From an uncultured Methanomicrobiales archaeon (lineage in GTDB: Archaea; Halobacteriota; Methanomicrobia; Methanomicrobiales; Methanospirillaceae), in the NCBI GenBank assembly GCA_963697895.1, contig OY969100.1, forward strand, positions 1,376,001 to 1,440,000: 64,000 nt of DNA, given 5' to 3'. Every line of letters starts with the position of its first letter. Position 1 is the stretch's first letter. Shown piece by piece: positions 6,845-12,286 of this stretch. A model generated the notes under the pieces. That model did no database searches, was not told where the DNA came from, and saw only the letters and a list, made by a program, of their open reading frames with translations. Made by a program: the position numbers and the translations under genes.

Positions 6845-6910
6845 TGAACGGTATCGGGTTCAACCGCCCGGAAGAAAATGATTATTGAAACTCCGGTGAA
6901 GGTGATTCTC

Positions 6911-7330
6911 ATGAACTATGAACTGAAGCCGATCGGGATTGTCCGCTCTCCATACCGGGAATTGCACGATGCTCCTCACCAGGGACGGTGTTCGGACGCG
7001 ATCTCGGAGATCGTCGTGTACGATGAGTTTGCGCCCGGCCTGAAGGATATCGGGGAGAACCCGCATCTCATCGTCCTCACCTGGTTTGACCGCTCGGACC
7101 GGACACAACTCCTGGCTACGCCACCACATCTCCGGACAGAACACGGGGTGTTTGCGACCAGGTCACCCAACCGCCCGAACCCGATCGGATTGTGCCTAGT
7201 AGACCTGATCGGGATGAGTGGCACGACGCTCCGGGTGCGGGGGCTCGACGCGATCGACGGCACACCGGTGATCGACATAAAACCCTATTCGGCAAAGATA
7301 GATTGTGTTTCCGGCCCCTCCCGGGAATGA
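6911..7330 (+). CDS. tsaA: tRNA m6t6A37 methyltransferase TrmO/TsaA
   Basis: KPIGIVRSPY, GVFATRSPNRPNPIGL and GLDAIDGTPVIDIKPY motifs; GGTGA upstream of the ATG. Confidence 0.93.
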   Translation: MNYELKPIGIVRSPYRELHDAPHQGRCSDAISEIVVYDEFAPGLKDIGENPHLIVLTWFDRSDRTQLLATPPHLRTEHGVFATRSPNRPNPIGLCLVDLIGMSGTTLRVRGLDAIDGTPVIDIKPYSAKIDCVSGPSRE

Positions 7331-7407
7331 TCGCATATCCGACCAGACCATCCGATCGGTGAATCCGTTCAGGACCGGACCACACGAAGATGCCGATCGG
7401 ACGTGAC

Positions 7408-8142
7408 TCACACCGCTGCTTCCGCCAGAACTTCGACCGTATTTTCGGCGGAGGCGATGAAGAGCTCCCCGAAGAACTCCTCCTGCCATATGTTCACCCG
7501 GCCCTCGAACATGAGGAAGAGGAGCGGAATGTAGACATCCGGAGCCGGTTTGGAGAGCGTCCGGCAGAGCTCGGAGAGCGTCACAATCCCTCCGGAGCCG
7601 ATGCAGTCCTCGCATTCGGCCATGACATCCATCACCGCTTCCTGGTACACCTCGTCATGGGCGATCCCGACGACATCATCCGCGGTGATCAGCCGTTCCC
7701 CATAGGGATCGGCATATCGCTGCCGGCGCCGCTGCTCCTTCTCGGCGTTTTTCAGCTCGGTGATCAGTTCGAAGAGGGTGACCGGGCTCATCCGGAGGCG
7801 TTTCCGGTCAAGGCGGCGACGGATCTCCCGTTCGAGCCGTTCGATCGGCCCCGCCTCCCCCTCCACGAACTCCCCGTCGAAGGAAAAGTCCTCATCGAAG
7901 AGCGACCCGTCCTCTTCCTCCTCATCTCCTTCAACCGATTCCAGCGAGAGATATTCGGACTTCATGCGGAGGAGCGTCGCGGCATAAAAGAGCGTGCGCC
8001 CGGAGATCCGGAGGTCCAGTTCCTTGCGCCGGTCCAGCTCCTCGAGGAACCGGTCGGTCACCTCGACGATATCGATATTCCATGGGTCGATCTCCCCCCG
8101 TTCAGCCAGCTGGACCAGGATTTCTATGGGTTCTTCAGCCAT
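7408..8142 (-). CDS. scpA: Segregation and condensation protein A (kleisin)
   Basis: EPIEILVQLAERGEIDPWNIDIVEVTDRFL, LLRMKSE, C-terminal QEEFFGEL; downstream of smc. Confidence 0.95.
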   Translation of the reverse strand: MAEEPIEILVQLAERGEIDPWNIDIVEVTDRFLEELDRRKELDLRISGRTLFYAATLLRMKSEYLSLESVEGDEEEEDGSLFDEDFSFDGEFVEGEAGPIERLEREIRRRLDRKRLRMSPVTLFELITELKNAEKEQRRRQRYADPYGERLITADDVVGIAHDEVYQEAVMDVMAECEDCIGSGGIVTLSELCRTLSKPAPDVYIPLLFLMFEGRVNIWQEEFFGELFIASAENTVEVLAEAAV

Positions 8143-8367
8143 CAGACGACTCCATCCCTGGCCATGTGGATCCCCCCGGTTCTTCAGCCATCAGATGACT
8201 CCATCCTTCTGACCCTCAGGACCATAATCTCTCCCGACTTCTTCAGCCATCGGACGACTCCATCCTTCTGACCCTCAAGACCATAATCACTCCCGGCTCT
8301 TCAGCCATCGGAAGAACCCCTCCCCGGCAGCCACCCGGACCTCGATCTCTCCAGGATCTTCAGCCAT
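8133..8367 (-). repeat. Five-copy degenerate tandem repeat anchored on ATGGCTGAAG, defining four mini-ORFs
   Basis: CTTCAGCCAT on + at 8133, 8182, 8241, 8299 and 8358 (spacing 49, 59, 58, 59); the middle units share TGAGGGTCAGAAGGATGGAGTC on the minus strand. Confidence 0.92.
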
Positions 8368-11300
8368 TGACCTTTATCCCGGTGACGAGCGTGCTCTTGT
8401 CCGCCCGGAGCGTGACCCCCATGATCCGGTCGGCACCCTCGATCATCGGTTTCCGGAGCGAGACGGTAATGAACTGCGACGTCGTGGCAAGCTCCCTGAT
8501 CATGTGTGCGATCCGCTCGGCATTCGTCCCGTCGAGCGACATATCGATCTCGTCCAGTGCATAGAACGGTGCAGGGATATACTGCTGGATCGAGAAGATG
8601 AAGGCCAGGGTGGTCAGGGATTTCTCCCCGCCGGAGAGCGCGGAGAGGAGGTGGACCGTTTTGTCCCGGGGCTGGACCGCAAACGTCATTCCCCCGGCGA
8701 ACGGGTCTTCTTCATTCTCGAGGACCAGATGTCCGTTCCCGTCCGTGAGCCGGGCAAAAATCTCCCGGAAGTTCCCGTCGATCGCCCTGAATGCGGACAT
8801 GAACGCCTCGTATTTCATCTGTGCATATTTTTCGATCCGCTCGATGATCGTGGCACGTTCCCGGGAGAGGACCTCCTTCTTCCCGGTCCGTTCGGAGACC
8901 CGCTGTTCCACCCGCTCATACTCCTCGATCGCGAGCATGTTGACGGCACCGATCTTCTTCATCGCCAGGGTCGCCTCGAGGATCCGGTCCTCGATCTCCT
9001 GGCTGGTAAGATCGGTGTCGACATCGCCCACCTGTTGGCGGAGCGCCTCGATCTCCTGCGCAAGGGTCTTTTCCCGCTCCTGGAGCGCGGTGATCTGGAG
9101 CTGGATCCGTTCCTTCATGACGTCGTGCTCGAGGATCCGCCGTTCTGATTCCTGGATCTGGCCGGCGACTTCGTCGTGCCGGGCACGGAGACCTTCGAGC
9201 TCTCCCGAGAACTCCTTTTGCCGCTCCTCTATCTGGCCGATCCGTGCCCTGCTCTCCTCGATCTGCTGGCGGGCCGAAACGACCTCCCCTTCGATCTGCT
9301 GGATCAGCGCCTGGATCCGCTCCCGTTCCGCGGATAGTTCCTCGACCCGCTTGGTAAAGTGTTGCCGCTCCCGCTGCAGTTCGGTGATGTCAGACTCCTT
9401 GTTCCGGAGCCGGCGTTCGACATCTTCCGCCTCACGCTTCTTCTTCTCGAGCTGGTCGGAAAGGGCAGGGATGTCGGTCCCTTCCAGCCGTTTCTTGATC
9501 CGCGTGACTTCGTCGGTCAACCGATTGATCTCCGTGGTTTCTTTGTCGAGCTTATCCTCGAGGGCCGCCAGATCCGATGAGCCAGTTTTCACCTCCCCAT
9601 CGAGTAGCTCCAGTGCCCGGTTCAACGACTCCTCTTCGTCCGAGAGCCCTTTGCACTGGCGGTTATATTCTTCGATCATCATGCGGTACCGCTCGATCTG
9701 CTGCTCGATACTCCCGCGTCTGGAACGCTCCGAAGAATTCTCTCCCTGCATCCGCTCTACCGCCGCAGCAAGCTCTTCCACCTCCTGCTGCACGCCCGCG
9801 AGGTGTTCCCGCACCCGGCCGATCTCGTCCCCGACCTCCGCACCGAATCCCCGGACGGTCTTTTTAAAGGAACCGCCGGTCATCGCGCCACTCTTTTCGA
9901 GGAGCTCCCCTTCAAGGGTGACCATCCGGTACCGGCCCATCATCCGCCGGGCCTGGTCGAGACCGGAGAGTACAAGGGTACCGCCGAAGACCACGCCGAA
10001 TGCATCGGTGAAACGGGTATCGAAGGAGAGGAGACGGAGTGCATAATCGACCACCCCGTCCTCCTTCACCTCCGGCAGCTGGATCTTCCGGAGCTTGTTT
10101 AAGGGAAGGAAAGTCGCCCTCCCGAGTTTCTGCTCCTTAAGGAATCCGATCGCACGGGATGCGACCGTGTCGTCCTCGACCACGACGTAGTGCAGTTTTC
10201 CTCCGGCGGCAACATTTAATGCGGTCGTATACTCCGGCGGGGCCTTTCCGAGCTGGGCAATCGTTCCGTGGACACCGTCCATACCGAGGACCGCCTCCAG
10301 AGCGCGGCCACCGGTCTCACCCCGTGCCTGCTGGAGGGCCTCGAGCCGGACGATCTCCTGTTCGAGCCCTTTTTGTTCGCCCCTGGCCCGCTCGAGGGTT
10401 TCACGGTGGGCGAAGAGCTCGCTCTCGAACGCCGAGAGGGAACGGTCGAGTTCCTTATGGTCCCGCTCCAGTCCATGGAGATTCCGTTCGATCTCGTCGA
10501 TCTGCTTCTTCTTCTCAAGCACCGCTCCCGATATTTCCGAAATCCTCTCTTCCATCCGTTCCCGTTCGGAACTCCGCATCCGGCTTTTTTCCAGGAGAAG
10601 ATCCTGCTCGCGGAGGATCGCGGACCGGTCGGCCTTCCGCTCCTCCACCTCCCTGAGAAAAGAAAAGAGTCGTTCCCTGGCGCCTTCGGTGTCTTTGCTC
10701 TCCCGGGTGATCTGGAGTTCCAGCTTCTCCACCTGGGCCCGGACGGTCGCCGCCTCCATCGAGAGGTTGGTCCGGTCGATCGAGAGGTTCCGTATGGCGT
10801 CGGTGCATTCGGTTACGCGGGACTCGGCACGTTTCGCATCCGTGTAGATGCGGTTCATTGCTTCGAGATTTACCTCCTTATCCCGCTGGAAACGAAGAAT
10901 CGCCTGCTCTGACAGTTTGATCGTACTCTTCGTCTCCTCGAGCTCGGCGATCAGTTTCAGGTACTCCGCCCCGCTCTTTTGCTGGATCTGTTGATCGATC
11001 TCCCGGAGGTCTGCCCGGAGATATGAGAGTTCATTCTCCTCGAGGCTCCGGTCGGAGAGAACCCGCTCGCACTCGATCTGTTGATCCGCGACGAGCCGGT
11101 TCAGGCCGGCGAGCTCCCGTTCCTGGTCATGCAGGCGTGCCGCGTTCCGACATGCCTGGAAAAAGGTGAGTTTCTCCTCCCATTGCTGGTAGATGAGTGC
11201 CTGCTCCCGTTCGGTACGGAGCTCGGATAACCGCGTATTCAGTTCCCGGAGGATCAGCTCTTCCCGTTCGATCCGTTCGCGCACTACCTCGAGTTCGGAG

Positions 11301-11800
11301 AGCGCCTGCTCCTTCTTGGAATCAAACTCGGCGACCCCGGCGATCTCATCGATGATCTTCCTTCGCTCAAAATCACTCATCTCGATGATACGGGTGATAT
11401 CCCCCTGCATCACCACGTTATATCCGTGGGGTTTGATCCCGTGCCGGGCGAGGAATTCTATGATCTCGGTCTGCTTGCAGAGGCGGTCGTTCAGATAGTT
11501 ATAACTGTAGTATCCACTGGGCGTCCGGCGGATTCTTCTCCGCATCTTTGTCCCGTCCGAGAAGGTGAGGGAGACCTCGGCAGTATGCTTCCCTGAGTTC
11601 AGGTTGATCAGGTCGGTCAGCTTCTCCGCACGAAGACTCCTCGACCCCGAGAGCGCGAGTACAAAAAGGATACTATCGATGATATTGCTCTTGCCGGAAC
11701 CATTCGGGCCGGAGATGACGGAAAATCCCTCGTAGAAGGGGATTTTGACTTTTTTTACAAATGATTTGAAATTATCGATCTCCAGCTCGGTGATGTACAA
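8360..11800 (-). CDS. smc: Chromosome segregation protein SMC
   Basis: Walker A GPNGSGKSN, long coiled coils, hinge GRATFLPL and GAMTGG, signature LSGGEKS, Walker B YALDE. Confidence 0.98.
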   Translation of the reverse strand: MYITELEIDNFKSFVKKVKIPFYEGFSVISGPNGSGKSNIIDSILFVLALSGSRSLRAEKLTDLINLNSGKHTAEVSLTFSDGTKMRRRIRRTPSGYYSYNYLNDRLCKQTEIIEFLARHGIKPHGYNVVMQGDITRIIEMSDFERRKIIDEIAGVAEFDSKKEQALSELEVVRERIEREELILRELNTRLSELRTEREQALIYQQWEEKLTFFQACRNAARLHDQERELAGLNRLVADQQIECERVLSDRSLEENELSYLRADLREIDQQIQQKSGAEYLKLIAELEETKSTIKLSEQAILRFQRDKEVNLEAMNRIYTDAKRAESRVTECTDAIRNLSIDRTNLSMEAATVRAQVEKLELQITRESKDTEGARERLFSFLREVEERKADRSAILREQDLLLEKSRMRSSERERMEERISEISGAVLEKKKQIDEIERNLHGLERDHKELDRSLSAFESELFAHRETLERARGEQKGLEQEIVRLEALQQARGETGGRALEAVLGMDGVHGTIAQLGKAPPEYTTALNVAAGGKLHYVVVEDDTVASRAIGFLKEQKLGRATFLPLNKLRKIQLPEVKEDGVVDYALRLLSFDTRFTDAFGVVFGGTLVLSGLDQARRMMGRYRMVTLEGELLEKSGAMTGGSFKKTVRGFGAEVGDEIGRVREHLAGVQQEVEELAAAVERMQGENSSERSRRGSIEQQIERYRMMIEEYNRQCKGLSDEEESLNRALELLDGEVKTGSSDLAALEDKLDKETTEINRLTDEVTRIKKRLEGTDIPALSDQLEKKKREAEDVERRLRNKESDITELQRERQHFTKRVEELSAERERIQALIQQIEGEVVSARQQIEESRARIGQIEERQKEFSGELEGLRARHDEVAGQIQESERRILEHDVMKERIQLQITALQEREKTLAQEIEALRQQVGDVDTDLTSQEIEDRILEATLAMKKIGAVNMLAIEEYERVEQRVSERTGKKEVLSRERATIIERIEKYAQMKYEAFMSAFRAIDGNFREIFARLTDGNGHLVLENEEDPFAGGMTFAVQPRDKTVHLLSALSGGEKSLTTLAFIFSIQQYIPAPFYALDEIDMSLDGTNAERIAHMIRELATTSQFITVSLRKPMIEGADRIMGVTLRADKSTLVTGIKVNG

Positions 11801-11812
11801 AGATCAGTTCCC

Positions 11813-12286
11813 CTATTCTTTCTTGGCGGAAGGGCTCTTTTCCTCATCTTCTGCGACGATCAGGTTGTCCTTCCGTTTGGTGTCACCGACACTCCCTTTC
11901 TTCTTTGAATATCCTGCGGATGCGACGACGTACTCGCCCCCGGCCTTTCTCTTCTCCGGTTTCAGCGTCCCGTCGGTCTGCATGATCATCTCCATCGGTT
12001 CTTCCTTCGGTGGTTCCGGCGCCCGTGGTGTGCTCGCGACCGATCCTTTCTTCTGCATCACGACCGTCCCGGACGGGGTCCCTCCCAGGACAGGCTTTAC
12101 CGTCTTGAGCTCCTGACGCCGTTCCTCCGATACCTTGTTGAGGCGCATGGCGATCGACTTGAGGTCCAGCAGTTCCTCCGTCAGGCCCTTTACCAGTGCA
12201 TCCATATCCTTCATCTTCCGCTCCAGTGCGGTAATCCGATCTTCAGGTGTTCCCGGGTTCATATCTTTATCCTTCACAATCTCCAT
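11813..12286 (-). CDS. Hypothetical protein with N-terminal coiled coil, first gene of the smc operon
   Basis: Heptad-like EDRITALERKMKDMDALVKGLTEELLDLK; AAGGAG upstream; 12 bp from smc. Confidence 0.8.
   Translation of the reverse strand: MEIVKDKDMNPGTPEDRITALERKMKDMDALVKGLTEELLDLKSIAMRLNKVSEERRQELKTVKPVLGGTPSGTVVMQKKGSVASTPRAPEPPKEEPMEMIMQTDGTLKPEKRKAGGEYVVASAGYSKKKGSVGDTKRKDNLIVAEDEEKSPSAKKE

Follow-up and report, generated by a model that had tools for sequence, protein, structure and literature searches.

The locus described here raises the question of how a run of small open reading frames (ORFs) came to lie between smc and scpA, and how the scpA start could still be reached from the smc stop across them. 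The two genes are on the minus strand of a 64,000-nucleotide (nt) stretch of DNA, called the window here, from an uncultured Methanomicrobiales archaeon (assembly GCA_963697895.1, contig OY969100.1, positions 1,376,001 to 1,440,000). Between them is an array of four repeat units. These are diverged tandem copies of scpA nt 1–59, local to this site and polymorphic, which fill 225 nt up to the scpA start. The array would have originated by slippage, and it would be tolerated because ribosomes could be relayed through the mini-ORFs that it contains. Taken as a whole, this explanation is given a probability of about 0.68.

Repeat units at the scpA start

The two genes that flank the array are the following.

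8360 to 11800, minus strand: smc, 1146 amino acids (aa), TTG start; Pfam SMC_N (1.4e-59) and SMC_hinge (1.5e-28)
7408 to 8142, minus strand: scpA, 244 aa; PF02616 (SMC_ScpA, 7e-15)

By their Pfam matches they constitute an Smc-ScpA (condensin-like) gene pair, i.e. the Smc ATPase halves and hinge, followed by the ScpA kleisin. A first reading of the locus, made from the sequence only, had reported five copies of the scpA start sequence ATGGCTGAAG on the minus strand, with the smc stop inside the first of them. An exact-match count found the copies at every coordinate given, with ATGs at 8367, 8308, 8250, 8191 and 8142, and the smc stop TGA (8362–8360) does lie in copy 1, within the first ATGGCTGA. 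These five are the only exact occurrences in the window and all are on the minus strand. The expected number is 0.12, and a count of five was reached in none of 100 shuffles.

The periodicity is also evident from repeat searches. Tandem Repeats Finder gives a 59-nt period across positions 8180–8312, and start-to-start spacings of 49, 59 and 58 nt were found by the repeat search. The latter also shows a 63-nt repeat (family D3), in which positions 8080–8142 are 71% identical to positions 8305–8367 at a distance of 225 nt. The unit lengths are 59, 58, 59 and 49 nt, which sum to 225 nt, and the ATGs at 8367 and 8142, being separated by this length, are in the same frame. The units and their template are as follows.

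8309 to 8367, minus strand: unit 1, 59 nt; the oldest copy of scpA nt 1–59, with 30 of 48 positions identical to scpA beyond the first 11 nt
8251 to 8308, minus strand: unit 2, 58 nt
8192 to 8250, minus strand: unit 3, 59 nt; identical to unit 2 at 42 of 47 positions outside the motif, and frameshifted relative to unit 2 after codon 4
8143 to 8191, minus strand: unit 4, 49 nt; with internal deletions
8142 to 8084, minus strand: the unit template, scpA nt 1–59 (scpA nt 60–63 are ATGG)

All four units are colinear with scpA nt 1–59 in a five-way alignment. The idea that the units are copies of the smc/scpA junction was not borne out, as the 63-nt match of 71% identity and the alignment show scpA nt 1–59 only. 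Beyond the first 11 nt, unit 1 displays 57–62% identity in comparisons with scpA and with each of the other units. Identity is 89% between units 2 and 3, and either of these shares 74% with unit 4. Thus the array is old enough for its units to have diverged, and an internal duplication came later.

As to its origin, the ancestor in which the duplication took place would have had the 8-nt smc/scpA overlap (NTGNNTGA) that is found across the order. Slipped-strand or unequal exchange may then have occurred between the ATGG at scpA nt 1–4 and the ATGG at nt 60–63. Each copy brings with it the scpA start codon, the TGA embedded in that start and the purine-rich codons 15–18, and for this reason the mini-ORFs, their overlaps and the Shine-Dalgarno (SD)-like sites described below can be regarded as automatic products of duplication.

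A different source of the units would be a mobile or interspersed repeat, similar to the interspersed repetitive units of mycobacteria (MIRUs), that inserted at the scpA start. Tandem units, a variable copy number and internal ORFs that overlap the stop and start on either side all fit the MIRU description in PMC12548453. However, the unit copies the first 59 nt of scpA itself and is at no other place in the genome; in a whole-genome search the array matches itself alone in 2.09 Mb. A MIRU-like element was ruled out on these two grounds, a single locus and a unit that is the gene's own beginning, and an origin of this kind is exceedingly improbable.

The mini-ORF chain

Four mini-ORFs lie between the smc stop and the scpA start.

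8287 to 8367, minus strand: mini-ORF1, 26 aa; overlaps the smc stop at its start (−8) and ends 22 nt into unit 2, at GTGA
8243 to 8308, minus strand: mini-ORF2, 21 aa; internal in-frame GTG 8290 and ATG 8284 at the ORF1 stop, with its own stop inside the next ATGGCTGA
8191 to 8250, minus strand: mini-ORF3, 19 aa; TGATG overlap with the ORF4 start
8135 to 8191, minus strand: mini-ORF4, 18 aa; its stop is inside the scpA ATGGCTGA (−8)

The translations and coordinates of all four agree with those first reported. The ORF1 stop (8289–8287) overlaps the in-frame ORF2 codon GTG 8290 (GTGA) and is located 2 nt before the in-frame ATG 8284. This GTGA overlap makes the chain complete, and it runs gap-free from smc to scpA with links of −8, −4 (or +2 via ATG 8284), −8, −1 and −8. 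Stop/start overlaps of 1, 4 or 8 nt, the architecture of coupled gene pairs, are present at every link of the chain. The peptides of units 2 and 3 differ despite near-identical DNA, the frame shifting after codon 4, and the joint estimate given above includes the view that the mini-ORF peptides have no function of their own.

Termination-reinitiation at gene overlaps, with strict coupling, has been reported for Haloferax volcanii and E. coli, the SD contribution to reinitiation differing from gene to gene (PMC6728339). Distance is important: in H. volcanii, a distance of 13 nt lowers reinitiation by 60%, and at 22 nt it is lost altogether (PMC10666635). The −8 overlap NTGNNTGA is described as an enriched spacing in PMC12548453, where it is also stated that short ORFs can “deliver” ribosomes, with MIRU repeats as an example. 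In the proposed mechanism, ribosomes finishing smc would reinitiate at copy 1, which shares its context with the ancestral scpA start. They would then be handed on by successive termination-reinitiation across the links, and direct SD-guided initiation at the inherited purine runs may assist. scpA would stay expressed, and the insertion would be tolerated and close to neutral. If no relay operates, the 217-nt gap should abolish coupling, which would leave scpA reliant on a modest SD-like site.

A complete chain could also reflect selection. In this alternative, an adaptive relay, the chain is maintained because it is useful, and the number of units sets the ScpA:Smc ratio as an expression dial. 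The completeness and tightness of the chain are in its favor, as is the presence of the 11-nt start/stop motif without change in all five copies. The frequency with which such chains form by chance was therefore estimated from dinucleotide shuffles of the junction interior with both ends fixed, where success is an all-overlap chain. At this locus (G000), 693 of 2000 shuffles gave the chain (35%). The figure for the closest relative (L032) is 364 of 2000, and the other nine loci gave 385 to 1994 of 2000, i.e. 18–99% across loci. All-overlap chains were observed in 9 of the 11 junctions of mini-ORF type, a number that may be counted for selection, yet chance alone would give ~6.7 of the 11.

Random mutation of the G000 array led to a similar result. 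The chain was kept in 1963 of 4000 arrays with 13 substitutions and one indel, and in 1540 of 4000 with 20 substitutions and one indel (39–49% over both sets); a single random indel left it in place in 3649 of 4000 (91%). Under the shuffle and mutation nulls the overlap architecture is thus not beyond chance. The chain architecture is near default, largely a by-product of duplication and not a tuned device. This is due to the frequency of NTGA in DNA of this composition and to the duplicated motif, which gives a start and a stop at each unit boundary. The sequence-only reading had cautioned that the motif contains its own TGA, and indeed two −8 links follow whenever the unit length is 1 mod 3. 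Its proposal of a relay from smc to scpA stands with respect to the complete chain and to the 8-nt overlap conserved in relatives, but the chain itself is no more than chance or descent gives. Its further suggestion, that repeat number tunes the ScpA:Smc ratio, is unsupported, and nothing shows it.

The SD-like sites were analyzed by calculating duplex energies with the 3′ tail of the genome's own 16S rRNA, in comparison with random 20-mers (median −6.4 kcal/mol). The tail of this archaeal small subunit rRNA ends GGATCACCTCCT. It was taken from the single 16S rRNA gene (G000:C1:1373899-1375365, minus strand), which is about 0.6 kb before the start of the window.

8317 to 8325, minus strand: GGGGAGGGG, before ATG 8308; −15.4 kcal/mol, 1st percentile of random 20-mers
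8258 to 8265, minus strand: GGATGGAG, before ATG 8250; −10.2 kcal/mol
8199 to 8206, minus strand: GGATGGAG, before ATG 8191; −7.5 kcal/mol, near background
8150 to 8157, minus strand: GGATGGAG, before the scpA ATG 8142; −7.8 kcal/mol

Purine-rich sites had been claimed before copies 2–5 and they are present, but clear pairing with the 16S tail, strong and well above background, is found before ATG 8308 only. In the alignment, scpA codons 15–18 (GGGGGGAG) are the counterpart of GGATGGAG in units 2–4 and of GGGGAGGGG in unit 1, which indicates that the purine runs are inherited from the coding sequence. These codons fall 8–10 nt before the next ATG, hence their SD-like appearance.

The same sites bear on the alternative that the array broke the coupling. 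In that case the sole route to ScpA would be de novo initiation, at the SD-like GGATGGAG in front of scpA or on a new transcript of internal origin, and the mini-ORFs would be untranslated or irrelevant. There is an SD-like run ahead of every internal ATG, and the scpA site at −7.8 kcal/mol is similar to those of canonical scpA starts in relatives (median −8.2 kcal/mol, n = 51); the role of the SD in reinitiation is moreover gene-dependent according to PMC6728339. Against this, the value of −7.8 kcal/mol is near the median of random 20-mers. Copy 1 has the context of the ancestral site of reinitiation, and translation of ORF1 is therefore to be expected if coupling pre-existed. With regard to a new transcript, an independent scpA promoter within the repeats, which the sequence-only reading had named as a possible objection to a relay, was not seen, as the array has no TATA-like A/T-rich 8-mer and no run of four or more T. 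The uncoupled alternative is considered distinctly unlikely. A structured RNA element was also considered for the array and was rejected: its fold is not unusual (z = −0.68, with 45 of 200 shuffles folding equally well) and there is no Rfam match within it.

Strain variants and the junction in relatives

The array was also compared with Logan contigs of public sequencing runs. No contig spans the whole stretch, and only the parts covered were interpreted. A 179-nt contig of run X2 covers positions 8122–8300 with one mismatch and no gaps, which bears out the 59 and 49 nt of units 3 and 4. A 266-nt contig of run X4 covers 8114–8380; it represents a related strain that retains all four units and differs by 20 substitutions and the loss of 1 nt at 8315. 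In other contigs of runs X3 and X4, 99 nt (8199–8299) are replaced by 39 other nt, so that the array is about one unit shorter, and one base is missing at each of positions 8320 and 8350. Finally, in a 110-nt contig of X4, 26 nt identical to the smc 3′ end are joined straight to the scpA start (8142–8059, four mismatches) and the array is absent. The array is polymorphic among close relatives, which have about four units, about three or none. The copy-number variation that the sequence-only reading had proposed to look for is thus present.

These contigs also bear on whether the sequence is correct. If the frame breaks were artefacts of assembly or sequencing, the true sequence would be one continuous, repeat-containing N-terminal extension of ScpA of 75 codons. 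The shared frame of ATGs 8367 and 8142 is consistent with this, and so are the 1-nt indels in unit 1 of the related contigs (8315, 8320 and 8350) and the in-frame extensions of more than five residues at 51 of 156 distinct junctions in relatives, up to 113 residues among those listed. As it stands, the sequence is not a single open frame and has stops at 8287, 8243, 8191 and 8135. The independent X2 contig, gap-free over 8122–8300, contradicts a continuous extension for units 3 and 4, whose lengths of 59 and 49 nt stand. At least three separate frame corrections would be needed, and the related four-unit contig has one indel and a total of 224 nt, which is out of frame. An artefact of this type is very improbable.

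In the four-unit X4 variant, the unit 3 motif no longer contains its TGA, a new ATGA is found 27 nt downstream, and unit 1 is 58 nt long. The chain seems to persist here by another route, as derived by hand from the 13 of its 20 differences that are listed. This retention by a different route, together with the differences in copy number among related strains, would be in accord with selection for the chain. However, retention is expected about half the time, because the mutation null keeps the chain in 39–49% of cases, and one close strain is without the array.

The junction was compared in Methanoregulaceae, Methanolinea and Methanoregula metagenome-assembled genomes of the Methanomicrobiales. 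No genome of the same genus is among the species representatives, and the closest relative is L032. Among 29 loci taken from further genomes of this family and order, 24 have the smc stop embedded in the scpA start as NTGNNTGA. A wider census covered 196 loci; 19 loci lacking the smc end were excluded, both genes are present in 177, and removal of 21 duplicates leaves 156 distinct junctions.

Direct overlap: 92 of 156
Direct overlap and an ScpA that is extended in frame at its N terminus by more than 5 residues: 51 of 156
Mini-ORF chain: 11 of 156
Unresolved (L004, L108): 2 of 156

Direct smc/scpA overlap, with or without an extension, is thus seen at 143 of 156 junctions. By this comparison the ancestral junction is the 8-nt NTGNNTGA overlap. 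The same count suggests that coupling matters in the order, which is a further point for an adaptive relay.

The 11 mini-ORF chains are those of G000, of L032 and of nine junctions of one genus in another family. In this genus (L020:1371-1504; L076, L088, L089, L092, L094, L112–L116) a separate duplication with a 52-nt period has taken place, spanning the last ~22 nt of smc and the ~30 nt with which scpA begins. There have thus been two or more independent duplications of the junction, in different families. The decay of the 52-nt copies differs from species to species, and of the eight aligned junctions in which the middle copy is retained, three no longer have the start or the stop of the internal motif. 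The latter weighs against an adaptive relay, as do the shuffle and mutation results above, and we regard selection for the chain with a dial function as unlikely.

In L032, a metagenome contig with a ScpA 80% identical to that of G000, a 212-nt spacer contains ORFs of 12 and 62 aa that are linked by ATGA, ATGA and ATGGCTGA. The L032 locus also shows a 12-nt tandem duplication (1.9 copies, L032:53-75) at the smc 3′ end, and its Smc is longer by a few residues.

Many Methanoregula-like genomes (L013, L014, L009, L053–L073 and others) have an in-frame ScpA extension of ~40 to 113 residues that is rich in proline, alanine and glutamate. These extensions start at the ATG that overlaps the smc stop, begin with MAE, and end in I/V-V-E-D-P-V-E-I-L or A-M-E-D-P-V-E-I-L, which is a second copy of the conserved EDPVEIL core motif. 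They may represent an old duplication of the start region that stayed in frame. A broader proposal combines these elements. The relay would be selected, gap-free overlaps would be kept or restored and kleisin synthesis locked to Smc; slippage in unit number and length would serve as a heritable dial or switch of the ScpA:Smc ratio in natural Methanoregulaceae populations; and the in-frame version would have given rise to the long ScpA extensions of related genera. As a whole this is an unlikely proposition.

Several points weigh against the explanation preferred here, that of locally duplicated scpA starts crossed by a tolerated relay. The L032 spacer, although from the closest relative, gives a poor alignment with the array, in which similarity is limited to short patches. 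The slippage mechanism has as its sole basis a 4-nt microhomology, and translation of the mini-ORFs and any ribosome relay are plausible predictions. In addition, all five copies agree at each of the first 11 nt (ATGGCTGAAGA), compared with agreement at 14 of 48 other columns (Fisher p = 1.6e-5), a test that is biased in that the motif served to find the repeats, copy 1 and scpA are under coding constraint, and units 2–4 are close kin. This invariance hints at constraint or gene conversion and not at purely neutral decay. Counter to constraint, the motif varies in contigs of related strains at positions 8245 and 8299.

Several other features are found around the two genes. A 157-aa gene (11813–12286, minus strand) with a weak DUF7518 match ends 12 nt ahead of the smc TTG start. 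On the plus strand, a TrmO-like gene (6878–7330) converges on the scpA 3′ end, and scpA is therefore the last gene on its strand here. A 293-aa open frame (7390–8271, plus strand) is antisense to scpA and the array; it has no Pfam match and is probably a spurious frame of G+C-rich DNA. The sR45 C/D-box small RNA family displays a weak match inside scpA (7872–7929, minus strand; 20.3 bits compared with a gathering score of 40, E = 0.076), which is probably due to chance.

Significance and comparison with known systems

If the relay works, the locus is a natural archaeal case in which the translation of two subunits of one complex stays coupled across a 217-nt insertion by means of four throw-away ORFs, and it provides a natural test of the strict distance rule for termination-reinitiation. 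If it fails, the array is a tolerated tandem repeat and a caution that, in sequence of this kind, overlapping mini-ORFs form chains nearly by default. In either case the conserved smc/scpA overlap is a duplication hot spot, with at least two independent events and copy-number polymorphism in the population, and duplication at the junction suggests a route to N-terminal extensions of the kleisin. The literature searched, supplements excluded, gave no account of a gene start that was duplicated in tandem to form a chain of mini-ORFs, be it between smc and scpA or in archaea.

MIRU copy number varies between strains. The array displays this property as well, in contigs, and it also has tandem units in an operon junction with overlapping ORFs. 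The closest likeness is to the mycobacterial MIRU variable number tandem repeats (MIRU-VNTR), short tandem units between co-directional genes whose small ORFs overlap the neighbouring stop and start, and MIRU ORFs are proposed to allow insertion at start codons with little downstream effect (PMC12548453). Unlike the array, which is the 5′ end of scpA itself at one locus, MIRUs occur dispersed over many loci and are regarded as mobile. The array also differs in that it is archaeal, its unit lengths vary modulo 3, and its links are a mixture of −8, −4 and −1.

The mini-ORFs can further be compared with ribosome-delivering ORFs and bicistronic designs, in which a short upstream ORF solely brings the ribosome to a downstream start (PMC12548453), as the mini-ORFs would do if a relay operates. 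Those ORFs are single and mostly in 5′ leaders, whereas here there are four in series inside an operon, derived from duplication.

Coupled overlapping gene pairs are a third comparison. The ancestral smc/scpA junction is of this kind, with a −8 NTGNNTGA overlap between subunits of one complex, and each link of the array has one of the three enriched spacings, −4, −1 and −8 (PMC12548453; PMC10666635). In the known cases, however, two real genes are joined directly, and the array interposes four non-conserved mini-ORFs.

The in-frame ScpA extensions of the Methanoregulaceae are found at the same site as the array, right after the overlapped start, and are of similar length, from tens of codons to ~110. 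The difference is in the frame: the extensions are continuous and are translated within ScpA, whereas the array is out of frame and is broken into mini-ORFs.

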